A program made the position numbers and the translations under genes. Below the pieces are notes generated by a model. The model ran no database searches and was not told the DNA's origin. It was given only the letters and a program-made list of their open reading frames with translations. A stretch of DNA of 11,449 nt from a virus (Duplodnaviria; Heunggongvirae; Uroviricota; Caudoviricetes), in IMG/VR virus record IMGVR_UViG_2711768062_000006; one strand, written 5' to 3'. Position 1 is the stretch's first letter. Each line of letters starts with the position of its first letter. This document shows positions 1 to 8,296 of this stretch, one piece after another.

Positions 1-1284
1 TTACTTCTTCGCCTCTGCAACCACTTTGCTACCCACGCCGCGATTATTGTATTCCCACATGCGGTTGTAGTTAGTGTCATTCAGATTGCGCTGTATTTCG
101 TCGCTATCGTCAACGCTGCCGGTATTACCCGCAAATGGACGATTGGAAATCACCGCATCGCCCCACGGTTTAACCGTGTTAAAACCTTCGTTGATGGCGC
201 TATCACGGATCACCACCTGACCGTTGGTATTGGCATCAACATCCAGCGAGCGGCCCAGTTGTGCCACGCCATCACCGGAAGCATTGAAACGGCTGTTTAC
301 GGCGAGGAAACCGTAATAGATGTTGGACAGCGTAGCCGGTGCAAACACATACGCTTCTTGCTGAGTACGTGAGTTCACCACGCGGAATTCGGTGTTATCG
401 AACACCACTGCGCCGCGACCAGAAACGATATCCACATCCCCTTCAATATAGCTGTTGGTCACCAGCGTACGCGGCTGACGGTTGGTTTCCAGACGGTTCT
501 GCACACCGCTGTTGGTGACAAAGAAGGTGTTCTGACGACCGAGAATGTTAACGTTGTTAATCTGTACCTGGTCACCATCAGTACGCAGTGCCACCGCCGG
601 ATGGTTACCTGCATCTACGCTATCGCCCAGCGTGTTTTCGATGGTCAGATTTTGCAGTTGCAGGCCATTGTTTTGTGACCAGAAGACCGCAGAGCAGAGA
701 ACACCGATACTGTCGCTGCGTTTGCTCTGGCAGCTATCGTACATATACCACGCTGGTTTACCTGGCATATATTTGCCGCGCGGGTTGACGTCGTGACGCC
801 AGTCGGTAGGGCTCATGCCACCATCAAGGGAAAGCCCAATCTTCACATCAATCGGTTTTTCACCTGTACCGTACAGAGTAATTCCACCCGGAGCGGCAGG
901 GACATATACCGTTCCCTGATACTCACCAGGCATCACGGCAATATACTGGCGCTTGTTGGTACGCTTGATAATTGCCGCATCTACCGCCGCCTGAATCGTG
1001 GTATGCGTTACACCTTGAGTGCCCGCCGGGCCGACAACAAATTCAGGTTGCGCAGGCAGGGTAATCGGGGAAGGATTCCACGCTGCAGCACCTGGTGTCA
1101 GGGATGCAAAATAGTGTTGAGCATCGAAATTCTGCGCTTCTTTTGCCGACAGAATCGGGCGAGAAGAGGTACCAGGCGCGGTTTGATCAGAAGGACGTTG
1201 ATCGGGCGGGGTTGAGCTACAGGCGGTCAGCGTCACGCCAAAAGCCAATGCCAGCGCCAGACGGGAAACTGAAAATGTGTTCAC
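1..1284 (-). CDS. ybhC: Host outer-membrane lipoprotein YbhC (pectinesterase-family, putative acyl-CoA thioesterase); complete, 427 aa
   Basis: Full-length minus-strand ORF with GTG start at 1284-1282 and TAA stop at 3-1. N-terminus MNTFSVSRLALALAFGVTLTACSS has a lipoprotein signal peptide with lipobox LTAC. Recalled as E. coli YbhC, the gene that flanks lambda attB on the gal side. Identity is from memory, not a search. Confidence 0.85.
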   Translation of the reverse strand: MNTFSVSRLALALAFGVTLTACSSTPPDQRPSDQTAPGTSSRPILSAKEAQNFDAQHYFASLTPGAAAWNPSPITLPAQPEFVVGPAGTQGVTHTTIQAAVDAAIIKRTNKRQYIAVMPGEYQGTVYVPAAPGGITLYGTGEKPIDVKIGLSLDGGMSPTDWRHDVNPRGKYMPGKPAWYMYDSCQSKRSDSIGVLCSAVFWSQNNGLQLQNLTIENTLGDSVDAGNHPAVALRTDGDQVQINNVNILGRQNTFFVTNSGVQNRLETNRQPRTLVTNSYIEGDVDIVSGRGAVVFDNTEFRVVNSRTQQEAYVFAPATLSNIYYGFLAVNSRFNASGDGVAQLGRSLDVDANTNGQVVIRDSAINEGFNTVKPWGDAVISNRPFAGNTGSVDDSDEIQRNLNDTNYNRMWEYNNRGVGSKVVAEAKK

Positions 1285-1418: not shown

Positions 1419-2489
1419 TTATTTGATTTCAATTTTGTCCCACTCCCTGCCTCTGTCATCACGATACTGTGATGCCATGGTGTCCGACTTATGCCCGAGA
1501 AGATGTTGAGCAAACTTATCGCTTATCTGCTTCTCATAGAGTCTTGCAGACAAACTGCGCAACTCGTGAAAGGTAGGCGGATCCCCTTCGAAGGAAAGAC
1601 CTGATGCTTTTCGTGCGCGCATAAAATACCTTGATACTGTGCCGGATGAAAGCGGTTCACGACGAGTAGATGCAATTATGGTTTCTCCGCCAAGAATCTC
1701 TTTGCATTTATCAAGTGTTTCCTTCATTGATATCCCGAGAGCATCAACATGCAATGTTGTTGGGATGGCAATTTTTACGCCTGTTTTGCTTTGCTCGACA
1801 TAAAGATATCCATCTACGATATCAGACCACTTCATTTCGCATAAATCACCAACTCGTTGCCCGGTAACAACAGCCAGTTCCATTGCAAGTCTGAGCCAAC
1901 ATGGTGATGATTCTGCTGCTTGATAAATTTTCAGGTATTCGTCAGCCGTAAGTCTTGATCTCCTTACCTCTGATTTTGCTGCGCGAGTGGCAGCGACAGG
2001 GTTTGTTGTTATATGGCCTTCAGCTATTGCCTCTCGGAATGCATCGCTCAGTGTTGATCTGATTAACTTGGCTGACGCCGCCTTGCCCTCGTCTATGTAT
2101 CCATTGAGCATTGCCGCAATTTCTTTTGTGGTGATGTCTTCAAGTGGAGCATCAGGCAGACCCCTCCTTATTGCTTTAATTTTGCTCATGTAATTTATGA
2201 GTGTCTTCTGCTTGATTCCTCTGCTGGCCAGGATTTTTTCGTAGCGATCAAGCCATGAATGTAACGTAACGGAATTATCACTGTTGATTCTCGCTGTCAG
2301 AGGCTTGTGTTTGTGTCCTGAAAATAACTCAATGTTGGCCTGTATGGCTTCAGTGATTGCGATTCGCCTGTCTCTGCCTAATCCAAACTCTTTACCCGTC
2401 CTTGGGTCCCTGTAGCAGTAATATCCATTGTTTCTTATATAAAGGTTAGGGGGTAAATCCCGGCGCTCATGACTTCGCCTTCTTCCCAT
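1419..2489 (-). CDS. int: Integrase, tyrosine recombinase (lambda Int, 356 aa)
   Basis: ORF-track protein MGRRRSHERRDLPPNLYIRNNGYYCYRD...HLLGHKSDTMASQYRDDRGREWDKIEIK matches recalled lambda Int almost residue for residue. Sits directly next to the P' arm. Confidence 0.97.
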   Translation of the reverse strand: MGRRRSHERRDLPPNLYIRNNGYYCYRDPRTGKEFGLGRDRRIAITEAIQANIELFSGHKHKPLTARINSDNSVTLHSWLDRYEKILASRGIKQKTLINYMSKIKAIRRGLPDAPLEDITTKEIAAMLNGYIDEGKAASAKLIRSTLSDAFREAIAEGHITTNPVAATRAAKSEVRRSRLTADEYLKIYQAAESSPCWLRLAMELAVVTGQRVGDLCEMKWSDIVDGYLYVEQSKTGVKIAIPTTLHVDALGISMKETLDKCKEILGGETIIASTRREPLSSGTVSRYFMRARKASGLSFEGDPPTFHELRSLSARLYEKQISDKFAQHLLGHKSDTMASQYRDDRGREWDKIEIK

Positions 2490-2685
2490 TTCTGATCCTC
2501 TTCAAAAGGCTACCTGTTACTGGTCGATTTAAGTCAACCTTTACCGCTGATTCGTGGAACAGATACTCTCTTCCATCCTTAACCGGAGGAGGGAATATCC
2601 TGCACTCGCGTACCCATCGACGAACTGTTTCAAGGCTTCTTGGGCGTCGCTGGCGTGCGTTCCACTCCTGAAGTGTCAAGTACAT
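2467..2685 (-). CDS. xis: Excisionase (lambda Xis, 72 aa)
   Basis: MYLTLQEWNARQRRPRSLETVRRWVRECRIFPPPVKDGREYLFHESAVKVDLNRPVTGSLLKRIRNGKKAKS matches recalled lambda Xis. Its 3' end overlaps the int start by 23 nt, as in lambda. Confidence 0.95.
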   Translation of the reverse strand: MYLTLQEWNARQRRPRSLETVRRWVRECRIFPPPVKDGREYLFHESAVKVDLNRPVTGSLLKRIRNGKKAKS

Positions 2686-2710: not shown

Positions 2711-2732
2711 AGAAAAAACCGCCATCAGGCGG
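2711..2732 (-). terminator. Candidate intrinsic terminator on the minus strand, overlapping the stop codon of the 55-aa ORF
   Basis: Read on the minus strand: CCGCC-UGAU-GGCGG hairpin (plus 2719-2732) followed by UUUUUUCU (plus 2711-2718). The TGA stop lies in the loop. Confidence 0.45.
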
Positions 2733-2892
2733 CTTGGTGTTCTTTCAGTTCTTCAATTCGAATATTGGTTACGTCTGCATGTGCTATCTGCGCCCACAGC
2801 ATCCAGTGGTCATAGCAGTCGCTGATGTTCTCGGCTTCGATAACTCTGTTGAATGGTTCTCCATTCCATTCACCTGTGACTCGGAAGTGCAT
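2725..2892 (-). CDS. Small hypothetical protein, 55 aa, at the position of lambda orf-55 downstream of xis
   Basis: ATG at 2892-2890, TGA at 2727-2725; translation MHFRVTGEWNGEPFNRVIEAENISDCYDHWMLWAQIAHADVTNIRIEELKEHQAA. Below the ORF-track length cutoff. The 40-bp gap to xis matches my memory of lambda. Confidence 0.6.
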   Translation of the reverse strand: MHFRVTGEWNGEPFNRVIEAENISDCYDHWMLWAQIAHADVTNIRIEELKEHQAA

Positions 2893-3134
2893 TTATCATC
2901 TCCATAAAACAAAACCCGCCGTAGCGAGTTCAGATAAAAGAAATCCTCGTCAGTGCGAGGATGCTGTTCATTGCTGCTATACACTTTTTTGCTCTCAACG
3001 TAAGCGGTAGCCCATTCTGTTGGGTTGGTGCAGTTGCTTTTAGGAAATGCTATTTACCCCTTAAATGTCGGCTGAAAGAGCTAAAATCCATGCAAAAAAT
3101 TTACGCAATTTTGTGTATTATTGTGCAGTAAGTA

Positions 3135-3737
3135 ATGAGCTATTTTCTGCGCAAAAAATGGATGGTAAATTTGTCCGGGTCAGGAAAAATTTTATGGGCG
3201 CTAAACATGAAAAAAGATTCGTATCCTTATTTGATTTGCATGACAGTTTCAGGGCTGATCTTTATTTTCCTTTTCTTCTGGTGGCGGGCAGATATCTACA
3301 GGGTCACGTTTCTTAATCAGAGTATATCCCACTATTACATTCTGTTTAGCATGGGAATAGCTTTTCTGTTATCTCTGTTTTGGGTTAAGAAGGGGATAGT
3401 AAAACAAAGAGGCTGGAAGAGTCTGTCAGCATACCTTAAGGTTTATGCAGGGATGTGCATATTTGCTGGATTTTTTCTGATTATACCCCTTACGACACTA
3501 ACTTATTTTTTGCCTGGAGAGACATCGTCTTATGTTGCACCGTATCGGTATACTTCCGGTAGTTCAAAAAGTTGTTCTGGAGCTGAGGTGGATGACCCCG
3601 ATCTACATGAGAATATTCGCATTTGCTATCCGTATGGCAATTATGAGTACGATAATATTATCTATGTTGAAAAGAAAATTAATATATTAGGTGCGGTAGT
3701 GACATATGCACAGACCGCGCGTGATGATACTGAATGA
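3135..3737 (+). CDS. Unrecognised integral-membrane protein (up to 200 aa): three predicted TM helices plus a ~75-aa Cys-containing C-terminal domain, in an AT-rich insert
   Basis: Long ORF in a region visibly more AT-rich than its flanks. Hydrophobic segments YLICMTVSGLIFIFLFFWW, ISHYYILFSMGIAFLLSLFWV and VYAGMCIFAGFFLIIPLTTLTYFL. Lysine/arginine-rich loops (MKKDS, KKGIVKQRGWKS) suggest N-in topology with the C-terminal domain outside. Start is uncertain: in-frame ATGs at 3135, 3162 and 3207, none with a clear Shine-Dalgarno. It is the only plus-strand gene inside the minus-strand early-left operon. Confidence 0.65.
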   Translation: MSYFLRKKWMVNLSGSGKILWALNMKKDSYPYLICMTVSGLIFIFLFFWWRADIYRVTFLNQSISHYYILFSMGIAFLLSLFWVKKGIVKQRGWKSLSAYLKVYAGMCIFAGFFLIIPLTTLTYFLPGETSSYVAPYRYTSGSSKSCSGAEVDDPDLHENIRICYPYGNYEYDNIIYVEKKINILGAVVTYAQTARDDTE

Positions 3738-3771
3738 TATAGTATATAGCGGGCAAGTTTTAGTTAATTTA

Positions 3772-3795
3772 TCGAGGTAATATAATTTACCTCGA
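3772..3795 (+). terminator. Candidate intrinsic terminator for the membrane-protein gene
   Basis: Perfect 9-bp inverted repeat TCGAGGTAA / TTACCTCGA (3772-3780 and 3787-3795) with 6-nt loop TATAAT, 35 nt after the TGA stop, followed by CTCGTTTGTTCT. Confidence 0.5.
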
Positions 3796-3947
3796 CTCGT
3801 TTGTTCTGGTATTAATATTTCGCTTTACGACCGATTTTTATCTGATGATATCATGCGGTTTTCATATACTGACTTACTGTCTTTTCTCCGTTAGCGATTT
3901 TCTCCTGCTCAGCGATGATTTTATCTTTGGCTTCTAGTTAATTTCGC

Positions 3948-4169
3948 TCACTTCGAACCTCTCTGTTTACTGATAAGCTCCAGATCCTCCTGGCAACTTG
4001 CACAAGTCCGACAACCCTGAACGACCAGGCGTCTTCGTTCATCTATCGGATCGCCACACTCACAACAATGAGTGGCAGATATAGCCTGGTGGTTCAGGCG
4101 GCGCATTTTTATTGCTGTGTTGCGCTGTAATTCTTCAATTTCTGATGCTGAATCAATGATGTCTGCCAT
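3948..4169 (-). CDS. TraR/DksA-family C4 zinc-finger protein, 73 aa (lambda orf73-like)
   Basis: ATG at 4169-4167. Cys pairs CCECG...CRTCASC are typical of the TraR/DksA zinc finger. Length and position fit the recalled lambda TraR homolog. Confidence 0.75.
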   Translation of the reverse strand: MADIIDSASEIEELQRNTAIKMRRLNHQAISATHCCECGDPIDERRRLVVQGCRTCASCQEDLELISKQRGSK

Positions 4170-4906: not shown

Positions 4907-5583
4907 CGCCATTGCTCCCCAAATACAAAACCAATTTCAGCCAGTGCCTCGTCCATTTTTTCGATGAACTCCGGCACCATCTCGTCAAAACTCGCTATAT
5001 ACTTTTCATTCCGCTCAATCACGACATAATGCAGGCCTTCACGCTTCATACGCGGGTCATAGTTGGCAAAGTACCAGGCATCTTTTCGCGTCACCCACAT
5101 GCTGTACTGCACCTGGGCCATGTAAGCCGACTTTATGGCCTCGAAACCACCGAGCCGGAATTTCATGAAATCCCGGGAGGTAAACGGGCATTTCAGCTCA
5201 AGGCCATTGCCGTCACTGCATAAACCATCGGGAGAGCAGGCGGTGCGCATACTTTCGTCGCGATAGATGATCGGGGATTCAATAACATTTACGCCGGAAG
5301 TGAACTCAAACAGGGTTCTGGCGTCGTTCTCGTACTGTTTTCCCCAGGCCAGCGCTTTAGCGTTAACTTCCGGAGCCACACCGGTGCAAACCTCAGCCAG
5401 CAGGGTGTGGAAGTAGGACATTTTCATGTCAGGCCACTTCTTTCCTGATCGGGGCTTTGCTATCACGTTGTGAACTTCTGAAGCGGTGATGACGCCGAGC
5501 CGTAATTTGTGCCATGCATCATCCCCCTGTTCGACAGCTCTCACGTCGATCCCGGTACGCTGCAGGATAATGTCCGGTGTCAT
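4903..5583 (-). CDS. exo: Lambda exonuclease (Red-alpha), 226 aa
   Basis: [65 protein letters not shown]...FGEQWR matches recalled lambda Exo. Start overlaps the bet stop by 4 nt (ATGA). Confidence 0.97.
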
Positions 5584-6365
5584 GCTGCCACCTTCTGCTC
5601 AGTGGCTTTCTGTTTCAGGAATCCAAGAGCTTTCACTGCTTCGGCCTGTGTCAGTTCTGACGATGCGCGAATGTCGCGGCGAAATATCTGGGAACAGAGC
5701 GGCAATAAGTCGTCATCCCATGTTTTATCCAGGGCGATCAGCAGAGTGTTAATCTCCTGCATGGTTTCATCGTTAACCGGAGTGATGTCGCGTTCCGGCT
5801 GACGTTCTGCAGTGTATGCAGTATTTTCGACAATGCGCTCGGCTTCATCCTTGTCATAGATACCAGCAAATCCGAAGGCCAGACGGGCACACTGAATCAT
5901 GGCTTTATGCCGTAACATCCGTTTGGGATGCGACTGCCACGGTCCGGTGATTTCTCTGCCTTCGCGGGTTTTGAATGGTTCGCGGCGGCATTCATCCATC
6001 CACTCGGTAACGCAGATCGGATGATTGCGGTCCTTGCGGTAAATCCGGCATGTGCAGGATTCGTTGTCCTGTTCAAAGTCCATGCCGTCAAACTGCTGGT
6101 TTTCGTTGATGATGCGGGACCAGCCATCAACGCCCACCACCGGAACGATGCCGTTCTGCTTATCAGGGAAGGCGTAAATTTCTTTCGTCCACGGATTAAG
6201 ACCGTACTGGTTGGCGACGATCAGCAATGCGATGAACTGCGCATCGCTGGCATCACCTTTAAATGCCGTCTGGCGAAGAGTGGTGATCAGTTCCTGTGGG
6301 TCGACAGAATCCATGCCGACTCGTTCAGCCAGCTTCCCAGCCAGCGTTGCGAGTGCTGTACTCAT
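5580..6365 (-). CDS. bet: Lambda Bet (Red-beta single-strand annealing protein), 261 aa
   Basis: [66 protein letters not shown]...EQKVAA matches recalled lambda Bet. Confidence 0.97.
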
Positions 6366-7118: not shown

Positions 7119-7224
7119 CCCTCGCACTCCCCGGAGCCTGCTGAAATTCAAGCTGCGGATCTAAGCGGTCATCGCAACGGTGAATCAGGTGGTTGCCGTA
7201 TCGTTGTGTTGTTGCGATGAACTT

Positions 7225-7253
7225 ATTTAAAACTATAGTTGTTTTATCGTCAA
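7225..7253 (-). promoter_or_regulatory. pL-like leftward promoter with embedded operator half-sites
   Basis: On the minus strand: -35 TTGACG (plus 7248-7253), 17-bp spacer, -10 TTAAAT (plus 7225-7230). The surrounding 35 bp is nearly identical to the pR-like module at 8272-8306 and contains GTTGTT/AACAAC inverted repeats and the palindrome AACTATAGTT (7231-7240). Confidence 0.5.
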
Positions 7254-7390
7254 CAACAAAAGTTGTTTTATTGGTTGTTTTAGATATAACTGGTTGTATT
7301 TAGGATGGATTTATTTTGTGACTTGAATCGCATAGCGATAACTGAAGCGAGGTTATGGTGGTTTTTTTAACGGTGTGTGATGAGGGGAGG

Positions 7391-7419
7391 GCAAAAGAAA
7401 ACCCGGCACGGTGACCGGG
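7391..7419 (-). terminator. Intrinsic terminator after the repressor gene
   Basis: On the minus strand: CCCGG-UCACCGUG-CCGGG hairpin (plus 7402-7419) followed by UUUUCUUUUGC (plus 7391-7401), about 120 nt after the repressor stop. Confidence 0.55.
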
Positions 7420-7540
7420 ATTCTTACGCCGTTAGGTAAAGATATTATTGCGGTGGCTTAATATTACTACCTAGAGCAAAGATAGGAATTAGTTCTTTAC
7501 TGAATGAGCACAATGCCCAGTTGATAATTTTTAATTGGTA

Positions 7541-8230
7541 CTACCCATGCTTCCTATATGTCTGCGGCATGCTCCCAATAACCTTACCGAAGATGAACAC
7601 CCGGTTCATCTCGTCTTTCTCGATCGGGTCCCACGGTGAGTAGCTTTTGTTATCAGAGATGACCAGCAGCTTATCCTTCATCATTTGCAGGCGCTTTACA
7701 TGGGCTGTGTCGTCGTACAGAAACGCATAGATACCATCACCGTCGAAAGATTTAACAGTGATATCAACGAACAGCAGATCACCTGGTTCGATCGTTCCTG
7801 ACATGCTGTCACCACGCACGTTAATGATGCGGATATTTTCCGCCTTCCTACCATCGAACATGTGACGAGCATCGTCAAACGAGTACTCAACCGAGCGTAG
7901 AACTTCTACAAACTCACGGTTGATGACTCCCGGCCCAGCACTGACTTCTATATCAAGAACGTCAATCTTGAAGTATTTGGAATGGCTGACAGTTGATTGT
8001 ATTGGTTGCACTGTACTGTCTGACATATTTCCAATGCCAGAAGATAACCATTCTGCGCGCACACCCAAAGCGTTCGCGATCTCCACGATTTTAGTTGTTT
8101 GGTTAGCTTTCCCTGTTTCGATTTTCTGAATAGCAGCCTGGCTAACCCCAACCAAATCCCCAAGTGCCTTTTGTGTAAGGCCTCGCGCTAATCTGGCTTC
8201 TTTAAGTCTTTCTGAGAGTGTTGTTTTCAT
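7541..8230 (-). CDS. cI: CI-type prophage repressor, N-terminal HTH plus C-terminal S24 (LexA-like) autopeptidase; 229 aa from the MKTT start
   Basis: MKTTLSERLKEARLARGLTQKALGDLVGVSQAAIQKIETG is an XRE-type HTH. Candidate Ala-Gly cleavage site in EVSAGPG, catalytic Ser in GDSMSGT and Lys in VKRLQ. The ORF track starts at 8296, but that ATG lies inside the operator palindrome and pR. The 8230 start would give a leaderless transcript from the pRM-like promoter. Not lambda cI by sequence. Confidence 0.85.
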   Translation of the reverse strand: MKTTLSERLKEARLARGLTQKALGDLVGVSQAAIQKIETGKANQTTKIVEIANALGVRAEWLSSGIGNMSDSTVQPIQSTVSHSKYFKIDVLDIEVSAGPGVINREFVEVLRSVEYSFDDARHMFDGRKAENIRIINVRGDSMSGTIEPGDLLFVDITVKSFDGDGIYAFLYDDTAHVKRLQMMKDKLLVISDNKSYSPWDPIEKDEMNRVFIFGKVIGSMPQTYRKHG

Positions 8231-8236
8231 AGACCA

Positions 8237-8265
8237 AATGTACAACCAAGGTTTTATTTCATCAA
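8237..8265 (-). promoter_or_regulatory. pRM-like promoter for the repressor gene, predicting a leaderless mRNA
   Basis: On the minus strand: -35 TTGATG (plus 8260-8265), 17-bp spacer, -10 TACATT (plus 8237-8242). The predicted start falls at or next to the A of the ATG at 8230. Confidence 0.4.
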
Positions 8266-8271
8266 GCGAAA

Positions 8272-8296
8272 ATGGTTGTTGACTAAAAACAACCAT
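8272..8296. promoter_or_regulatory. Candidate operator: 25-bp perfect-arm palindrome ATGGTTGTT-N7-AACAACCAT overlapping the pR -35
   Basis: The 9-bp arms are exact reverse complements. Related half-sites (TGGTTGT/ACAACCA, GTTGTT/AACAAC) recur at 8242-8248, 8289-8295 and across 7238-7300. Confidence 0.5.

Follow-up and report, generated by a model that had tools for sequence, protein, structure and literature searches.

A moron-like cassette shared by 434-type lambdoid and P2-like prophages encodes a predicted three-helix inner-membrane protein, a possible phage-exclusion factor

The window analyzed here is the whole stretch of 11,449 nucleotides of IMG/VR virus record IMGVR_UViG_2711768062_000006 (Caudoviricetes). 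We were concerned with the AT-rich DNA at 2893-3947, which lies between the short open reading frame (ORF) ORF55 and a TraR-like zinc-finger gene, and with the single membrane-protein gene that it carries. Judged from its sequence, this gene together with its flanking signals is best read as a classic moron, a transcription unit of about 0.76 kb placed in opposite orientation in the xis-TraR slot of a 434-type lambdoid prophage. The features of the insert are listed below by window coordinates (TM, transmembrane helix).

2963-3069: left junction DNA, found in 434-type phages and not in the P2-borne cassette; the part up to 2988 is common to Shiga toxin (Stx) phages
3070-3827, plus strand: mobile cassette core of 758 bp, made up of leader, gene and hairpin
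3101-3127, plus strand: T[TC]GTG repeats, two to three in number and in 10-bp phase (-106, -96 and -86 relative to the ATG)
3143-3171, plus strand: predicted promoter, with a -35-like TTTTCT (3143-3148), a 17-nt spacer and an extended -10 element TGGTAAATT (3163-3171)
3207-3737, plus strand: coding sequence (stop codon 3735-3737) of a predicted inner-membrane protein of 176 amino acids, delimited by homologue alignment, upstream frames and the ratio of nonsynonymous to synonymous substitution rates (dN/dS)
3228-3509, plus strand: predicted membrane part, with TM1 (residues ~8-26), periplasmic loop 1 (27-39), TM2 (40-60), cytoplasmic loop 2 (61-78) and TM3 (79-101)
3510-3734, plus strand: predicted C-terminal periplasmic domain (residues 102-176), a small five-stranded beta-barrel with the motif SCSGAxVxxPxL...IxICYPxGxY
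3772-3795, plus strand: intrinsic-terminator-like hairpin after the gene, with a 9-bp stem including 4 G-C pairs, a 6-nt loop and the tail CTCGTTTGTT
3828-3935: right junction DNA, after which backbone homology to sibling prophages resumes at 3935/3936

Composition, borders and signals of the cassette

The initial annotation had judged by eye that this region is richer in AT than its surroundings, and the computed profile, which is far from flat, agrees: in 300-bp windows the GC fraction is 0.34-0.41 over 2851-3900 and 0.44-0.55 on both sides. The cassette itself (3070-3827) has a GC content of 37.3% and the gene one of 39.0%, as compared to 48.4% in the remaining prophage. Alignment with sibling prophages that carry the same int/xis and TraR flanks shows homology stopping at 2962 or 2988 and resuming at 3935/3936. 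The insert thus spans approximately 2963-3935, and of the borders first proposed (2893-3947) the right one holds, while the left one was placed about 70 bp too far out. As had been described, the insert contains one plus-strand gene between ORF55 and the TraR-like gene, opposed to the pL operon.

In the sibling prophages with the same flanks the xis-TraR slot is occupied by Ea22-like, DUF551 or DUF4222 genes in pL orientation. From these comparisons the slot is a variable cargo site, the counterpart of the ea8.5/ea22 region of lambda, with which it shares its map position and, in the siblings, Ea22-like genes; the lambda genes, however, belong to the leftward pL operon, whereas the cassette is opposed to it and has its own signals. 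The same cassette is found in unrelated, P2-like prophages of E. coli, Salmonella and Klebsiella. It matches the copy in an E. coli P2-like prophage (L019, 5864-6619) with 76.3% DNA identity over 761 bp, and in two further P2-borne copies, L006 and L005, the DNA match begins at window positions 3074 and 3111, respectively, and ends at 3705. The homologous leader that the window shares with the L019 copy is about 137 bp long and is joined to the gene and the hairpin. That this is a horizontally acquired accessory gene in a variable slot, as was proposed on the grounds of composition, orientation and location, is strongly supported by the deviant GC content, by the other genes that siblings carry in the slot and by the presence of the same cassette in P2-like prophages. 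The cassette also matches the definition of a moron (Juhala/Hendrix sense, PMC3594210), because it differs in composition from the prophage around it, is extra DNA relative to related phages, and has a predicted terminator of its own; the conserved element before the gene may be its promoter.

In order to place the start of the gene we compared its upstream region among homologues. The plus-strand ORF at 3135-3737 (200 amino acids) is present as first called, and its assigned start at 3135 has to be revised. Divergent homologues are 169-180 amino acids long and their first residue aligns with an invariant methionine, Met25 of the 200-residue ORF, two homologues with unrelated N-terminal extensions being exceptions; before this ATG, the frame is closed within 1-18 codons and contains no start codon in all nine of the homologous loci compared. 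Since Met25 is invariant and the upstream frames are closed, we conclude that translation starts at ATG 3207 and yields a protein of 176 rather than 200 residues. None of the annotations elsewhere uses this codon: the phage 434 record begins the gene at a TTG equivalent to window position 3171, and mEp332 and RefSeq begin it at 3135. A weak Shine-Dalgarno match, TGGG, precedes ATG 3207 by 9-12 nt. Comparisons with copies whose synonymous sites are near saturation give a dN/dS of 0.10-0.17 (about 0.09 for the C-terminal domain), indicating a real, constrained protein. Additionally, 30 residues are invariant among 21 family sequences, and the exact window protein is encoded on more than 1000 contigs.

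The predicted promoter coincides with a conserved element, TGnTAAATT, at -44 from the ATG, which the window shares with three P2-borne copies (L019, L006, L005) and which has a run of T 17 nt upstream of it; two more distant copies (L020, L022) have the variant TGATAATTT at -47 from the ATG. Altogether, the element is kept at one or the other of these distances in the window and in all six P2-borne loci inspected. The transcript would then start near 3178, which is downstream of the misannotated start codons and agrees with the assignment of ATG 3207.

Further upstream, the arrangement TTGTG-N5-TTGTG occurs once in the window, as compared to 0.04 occurrences expected, and T[TC]GTG(C/T)A repeats are kept in both the lambdoid and the P2-borne cassettes (L019, L006, L005). 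These repeats, which are possibly a regulator site, overlap the "CII-binding consensus" of the phage 434 record (TTGY-N6-TTGY, 3111-3124). We considered a CII-activated main promoter here and rejected it: there is no conserved -10 element at CII distance, the conserved -10-like element lies 39 nt further downstream, and the repeats are also found in P2-like phages. P2-like phages are not known to encode CII.

The hairpin at 3772-3795 had been called a strong terminator. The hairpin is real, with a centroid energy of -12.9 kcal/mol, and is partly conserved in the E. coli P2-borne copy, the closest one; its strength, however, is moderate, as the folding stability of the 93 nt around it is not out of the ordinary (z = -1.47). 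A predicted terminator of moderate strength is a plausible reading of this sequence.

The encoded protein and its relatives

Both hydropathy and an AlphaFold2 model give three long helices and, after them, a beta domain of five strands and about 75 residues, in keeping with the architecture originally outlined (mean predicted local distance difference test score (pLDDT) 85.9, predicted template modeling score (pTM) 0.70; pLDDT 90.6 for the C-terminal domain modeled alone). Averaged over 21 family members, the net charge is +3.7 in the TM2-TM3 loop and +1.3 at the N-terminus, while the C-terminal domain is negative. The positive-inside rule then predicts a cytoplasmic location for the N-terminus and loop 2 and a periplasmic one for loop 1 and the C-terminal domain, so that the extracytoplasmic location suggested earlier for this domain is also what the family predicts. 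Loop 1 contains a conserved IYRxTFL and, in the model, a short strand (34-36) that probably packs against the barrel, which would be consistent with both being on the periplasmic side.

Instead of the three cysteines counted at first, the C-terminal domain contains two, C123 (nt 3573-3575) and C140 (3624-3626), which are kept without exception in the 21 sequences compared; the protein's two remaining cysteines lie in TM1 and TM3 and are variable. Because C123 and C140 flank the beta2-beta3 hairpin on the predicted periplasmic side, they are likely to form a disulfide. The C-terminal domain is the best-conserved part of the protein (56-85% identity, as compared to 32-73% in the membrane part). 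With this architecture the product looks more like a binding protein acting on the periplasmic side of the inner membrane than like an enzyme or a channel, since no catalytic domain is present, the small periplasmic barrel is the most constrained part and the protein works as a single gene.

That the product belongs to no recognized family also stands. Pfam, including its colicin-immunity and holin families, gave no match above the curated threshold (the sole hit, DUF6057 with an E-value of 0.18, is below the cut-off), and neither NCBIfam nor PADLOC gave a match; no relative was found by a sequence-profile search of the PDB, and Foldseek against viral structures returned nothing at E < 1e-3. 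The unannotated PHROG 1416 does match (E 7.1e-51), but its 90-position profile covers residues 113-200 of the 200-residue ORF only. A profile search of 1.84 billion cluster representatives recovered 62 proteins, nearly all of them about 170 amino acids long and of the same architecture; two large multi-stretch matches, P0124 and P0131, were dismissed as low-complexity repeat proteins.

The initial annotation regarded the function as undescribed. It is true that no function has been assigned, but the gene itself is already known, from the phage 434 genome and from the catalogue of Rousset et al. (2022). The 434 genome annotates the region as CPT_434_35 and CPT_434_36, both "putative membrane protein", and its announcement assigns no function to the gene. 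CPT_434_36 and its equivalents in mEp332 and phage 2B8 represent essentially the same locus as ours, the DNA of 2893-3947 being 98.8% identical in 434, 99.8% in mEp332 and 98.9% in 2B8 and 100% identical in many E. coli chromosomes. Counting genomes with at least 80% of this region, the lambdoid version occurs in 905 of 5426 complete E. coli genomes, or about 1 in 6, and P2-type DNA variants of the cassette occur in a further ~160.

Outside lambdoid prophages, we examined four phage-borne homologues, which share 78% (E. coli), 71% and 59% (Salmonella) and 55% (Klebsiella michiganensis) identity with the window protein. All of these (P0039, P0044, P0048, P0054) are encoded in P2-like prophages, adjoining the replication gene gpA and converging on the gpA operon; where the portal gene is present, this position is the gpA-gpQ interval, that is the old/tin locus, a hotspot in which several defense systems have been experimentally validated (PMC9122126; PMC13586616). 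Table S5B of Rousset et al. (2022) lists a "System #4, 3 TM", a single protein without Pfam hit that occurs 470 times among 18,150 loci; its family is the fourth most common cargo of the P2 hotspot. The System #4 representative and the window protein are 51% identical over 168 residues (BLASTP, E 2e-56) and belong to the same family, having in common three TM helices, the C-terminal motif with two cysteines, a single-gene organization and the lack of a Pfam hit. They differ in setting: System #4 is found in P2-like myophages at old/tin, whereas the window copy is lambdoid and lies between xis and the TraR-like gene, not between gpA and gpQ.

The family also has members on chromosomes and plasmids. 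In six species of Enterobacter the gene occupies one syntenic chromosomal locus, between a LysR gene and genes for a GGDEF protein and an AI-2E transporter (in locus L013 it begins 17 bp after the LysR gene), and Cedecea and Pseudescherichia have another chromosomal locus in common. In Citrobacter the homologue lies in a small island between rstA and rstB, and in Pantoea on megaplasmids. The picture suggested by these sequences is that of a chromosomal Enterobacterales family from which two unrelated groups of temperate phages took up one clade as a moron.

Some of the loci examined have further contents. Several Salmonella P2-like prophages (L005, L007, L008, L020, L021; about 5230-5890) carry two small co-oriented genes, of 81 or 123 and of 119 amino acids, before the cassette; both are absent from L006 and L019, and L022 has the 81-residue gene only, so that they look like a separate module. 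In the hotspot of the K. michiganensis P2-like prophage (L023-L025, 2281-5623) there is also a gene for a 790-residue protein with a weak AAA_16 match and one for a 279-residue partner, a pair that is likely a defense system sharing the slot with the three-helix gene. The 67-kb linear Serratia marcescens "plasmid" pE28_003 (L033) contains pabC, mltG, tmk, holB, ptsG, hinT and lpoB in chromosomal order and is probably a chromosomal fragment labeled as a plasmid.

Possible functions

We consider envelope-level phage exclusion, in which the passage of an incoming genome across the inner membrane is blocked, as the leading interpretation of the cassette, and assign it an overall probability of roughly 0.4. 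Exclusion appears to be the most likely role because the cassette is an autonomous unit opposed to the lytic operon, is carried by two types of phage and in its P2-borne copies is always found in the defense hotspot, and a block of entry the most likely mechanism because of the analogy with HK97 gp15 and P22 SieA. With its own predicted extended -10 promoter and its insulation from the pL operon, the gene would be expected to be expressed in a lysogen while the phage is repressed. The protein would reside in the inner membrane and, through its conserved periplasmic barrel, bind a conserved target that belongs either to the host (an inner-membrane or periplasmic component on which genome entry depends) or to the incoming phage (a conserved portion of its ejection or tape-measure machinery), and superinfecting DNA could then not cross the inner membrane.

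One functional precedent, HK97 gp15, is the product of a lambdoid moron with its own terminator. It is a small prophage-expressed inner-membrane protein by which genome entry is blocked, and its non-phage chromosomal relatives (YebO) are confined to Enterobacteriaceae (PMC3594210). The window protein resembles it in being encoded by a lambdoid moron, in being, by prediction, a small inner-membrane protein and in having non-phage chromosomal relatives; gp15 differs in its length of 62 residues and its location in the tail operon. The likeness does not extend to homology with gp15/YebO, for which hhalign gave a probability of 0.9%. P22 SieA, an inner-membrane protein of 162-164 amino acids with three predicted TM helices that is expressed from the prophage by its own promoter and blocks DNA injection, is similar in size and in the number of predicted helices to the 176-residue window protein with its three predicted helices, which also falls within the range of the SieA family (about 160-200 amino acids, three or four TM helices). 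Here too homology to the SieA family (types A, B or C) was rejected, hhalign giving a probability of 0.1% for the profile of our family against P22 SieA. SieA proteins have the motif FxRYPxEAxxFNK near a C-terminus predicted to be cytoplasmic, whereas the window protein lacks this motif and its conserved domain is predicted to be periplasmic, and SieA genes are located between genes 16 and 9 of P22-like phages. The P2 genes old and tin are prophage-expressed exclusion genes in the same gpA-gpQ slot as the P2-borne members of our family, but they encode unrelated soluble proteins that act inside the cell, and have the slot alone in common with it.

The initial annotation had suggested a superinfection-exclusion or anti-phage factor. 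The hotspot location of the P2-borne copies, which became apparent from the homologues, lends this suggestion real, if contextual, support; the family also has chromosomal members, and the same hotspot carries non-defense cargo as well. A partition system found in approximately a quarter of P2-like phages and a cytolethal distending toxin belong to that cargo (PMC9122126), and known morons include Lom and SopE, whose functions are not in defense (PMC3594210). Further observations likewise weigh against exclusion. The System #4 sequence is listed by Rousset et al. (2022) in the catalogue table only and is absent from their table of cloned and tested systems; the window protein sequence is absent from the supplements of the DefensePredictor paper and of Vassallo 2022, as searched; PADLOC-DB 2.0 has 0 matching families at E <= 1; and our search of the literature found no functional study of, or experiment on, the three-helix gene family. 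The predicted promoter at 3143-3171 is a conserved consensus-like element, which a simple sigma-70 consensus scan placed below its threshold. Strong purifying selection acts on the periplasmic domain, in which no signature of an arms race is seen. Finally, the vertically inherited chromosomal members at fixed non-phage loci fit a physiological role in the host at least as well.

Several of these points favor the strongest rival, namely that the gene is a factor of lysogenic conversion or host physiology which binds a host envelope partner and raises the fitness of the lysogen, whether by stress tolerance, by modulation of a transporter or as an orphan immunity protein against a bacteriocin, a type VI secretion system (T6SS) toxin or a contact-dependent inhibition (CDI) toxin. 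Orthologues at conserved non-phage loci in Enterobacter, Cedecea/Pseudescherichia and Citrobacter, and those on the Pantoea megaplasmids, would be natural for such a gene, and so would the concentration of conservation in the C-terminal domain, as expected for a conserved host partner. On the other hand, no toxin or cognate partner gene is adjacent in the contexts examined, neither colicin-immunity nor other Pfam families match, and all four of the P2-borne copies examined lie in the defense hotspot, of which the family is such a frequent occupant. The chromosomal relatives are also compatible with an exclusion role of the phage-borne clade, for which gp15 and YebO offer a precedent. On the whole we hold the host-physiology account to be somewhat doubtful, if a serious contender.

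The exclusion reading can be extended to the proposal that with this protein begins a new family of anti-phage proteins that act at the envelope and have no structural relatives. In it, a conserved, disulfide-stapled barrel would occupy a conserved host component required by several types of phage for entry, possibly a permease of the phosphoenolpyruvate-dependent sugar phosphotransferase system (PTS). A shared host entry component would explain why the gene is carried by both lambdoid siphophages and P2-like myophages, why it ranks so high in the hotspot and why it occurs in about a fifth of E. coli genomes, lysogens of phage 434 among them. In this full form the proposal is speculative, and we regard it as unlikely.

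Abortive infection is a less probable explanation. The protein would then be an effector or toxin that depolarizes or permeabilizes the inner membrane upon infection, so that the cell dies before progeny is released. According to Rousset et al. (2022), transmembrane proteins of known systems are generally regarded as suicide effectors, and the hotspot location fits. However, the gene stands alone in every context, with no sensor or partner, and is a one-protein system in the Rousset table; its neighbors in the P2 loci vary; conservation is concentrated in the periplasmic barrel and not in the TM helices; and a stand-alone chromosomal gene persists in Enterobacter. We consider such an effector quite improbable.

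A specific variant of exclusion, in which the barrel binds an enzyme IIC (EIIC) sugar permease of the PTS (Glc or Man family) and thereby blocks entry or modulates uptake, derives from two gene contexts: in Serratia the homologue, carried by pE28_003, follows ptsG at a distance of 235 bp in the same orientation, and the homologue of Klebsiella sp. R390 lies beside a bgl-type PTS EIIBCA gene. Such permeases are the kind of inner-membrane protein through which lambdoid siphophages bring in their genomes. PtsG is also the inner-membrane protein used for HK97 entry. ManYZ is needed for lambda genome entry (PMC13190303), HK97 entry is described as depending on an inner-membrane protein, and the prophage protein DicB as protecting the cell by inhibiting inner-membrane receptor proteins (PMC6832061). 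Nevertheless, the adjacency did not recur among the 12 species-level loci examined, and adjacency to a LysR gene is about as frequent, which indicates that coincidences arise easily with so few contexts. The PTS variant is a weak lead and very improbable as it stands.

That the ORF is a silent passenger, unexpressed or functionless, as the weak Shine-Dalgarno match and a promoter that is only predicted might suggest, is hardly credible given its low dN/dS, its invariant residues, a confidently predicted fold, a conserved upstream element and the spread of the exact protein over so many contigs.

If the exclusion reading is correct, the few inner-membrane exclusion proteins would be joined by one of a new family and fold, and the gene may point to a host factor for genome entry, which would matter when phages are chosen for therapy of E. 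coli, Salmonella and Klebsiella infections. Otherwise this would be a widespread lysogenic-conversion gene, and a caution against reading every gene of a defense hotspot as a defense gene. In either case it is a common gene that is unexplained in a textbook phage, 434.

The surrounding prophage

The genes and signals on either side of the insert are the following.

1-1284, minus strand: host gene ybhC, at the start of the window, followed by the lambdoid prophage at the lambda attachment site
1419-2489, minus strand: int
2467-2685, minus strand: xis
2725-2892, minus strand: ORF55
2912-2931, minus strand (that of the pL transcript): terminator-like hairpin upstream of ORF55 in the pL direction, with an 8-bp stem including 4 G-C pairs and the tail TGTTTTATGG
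2943-2962, minus strand: hairpin with the tail TTCTTTTATC, the tL4 terminator of the leftward operon, annotated in phage 434 record M60848
2961-3131, plus strand: ORF of 56 amino acids, annotated as a gene ("putative membrane protein" or hypothetical) in the 434 and mEp332 records and not annotated by RefSeq
3948-4169, minus strand: TraR-like zinc-finger gene
rightward of the TraR-like gene, in order: orf63- and orf60a-like genes, exo, bet, gam, a repressor/cro pair and replication genes

The t-L4 of M60848 (2292-2322) maps to approximately 2936-2966 of the window, and the left junction of the insert, where homology to the sibling prophage L029 ends (2962), is the exact end of the tL4 hairpin, the second of the two tandem hairpins at 2912-2962. 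This coincidence suggests that boundaries of recombination are marked by hairpins here. The 56-residue ORF at 2961-3131, considered as a second gene of the insert, is probably not a gene, as it runs across the junction of the cassette (3070) and into the conserved leader; PADLOC and NCBIfam gave no family match for it.

The copy of the window protein on a 3.5-kb contig (JARKOR010000073.1, 442-969) of a metagenome-assembled genome of Nanosynbacter (Patescibacteria), to which it is 100% identical, is almost certainly an E. coli prophage contamination of that bin.

Elsewhere in the window, the DNA at about 7150-7540, beside the end of the repressor gene, is AT-rich (GC 0.37, GC skew up to +0.36) and has no ORF of at least 40 amino acids; Rfam detected no RNA family within the window, this interval included. 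Phage 434 has about 436 bp of extra DNA between xis and ORF55, containing ORF114 (434 positions 2384-2821, corresponding to window ~2713-2716), and since the window lacks this DNA, its prophage is a mosaic relative of 434 and not 434 itself. The 251-residue repressor of this prophage (7541-8296), as judged by its translation, looks unlike the 434 repressor.

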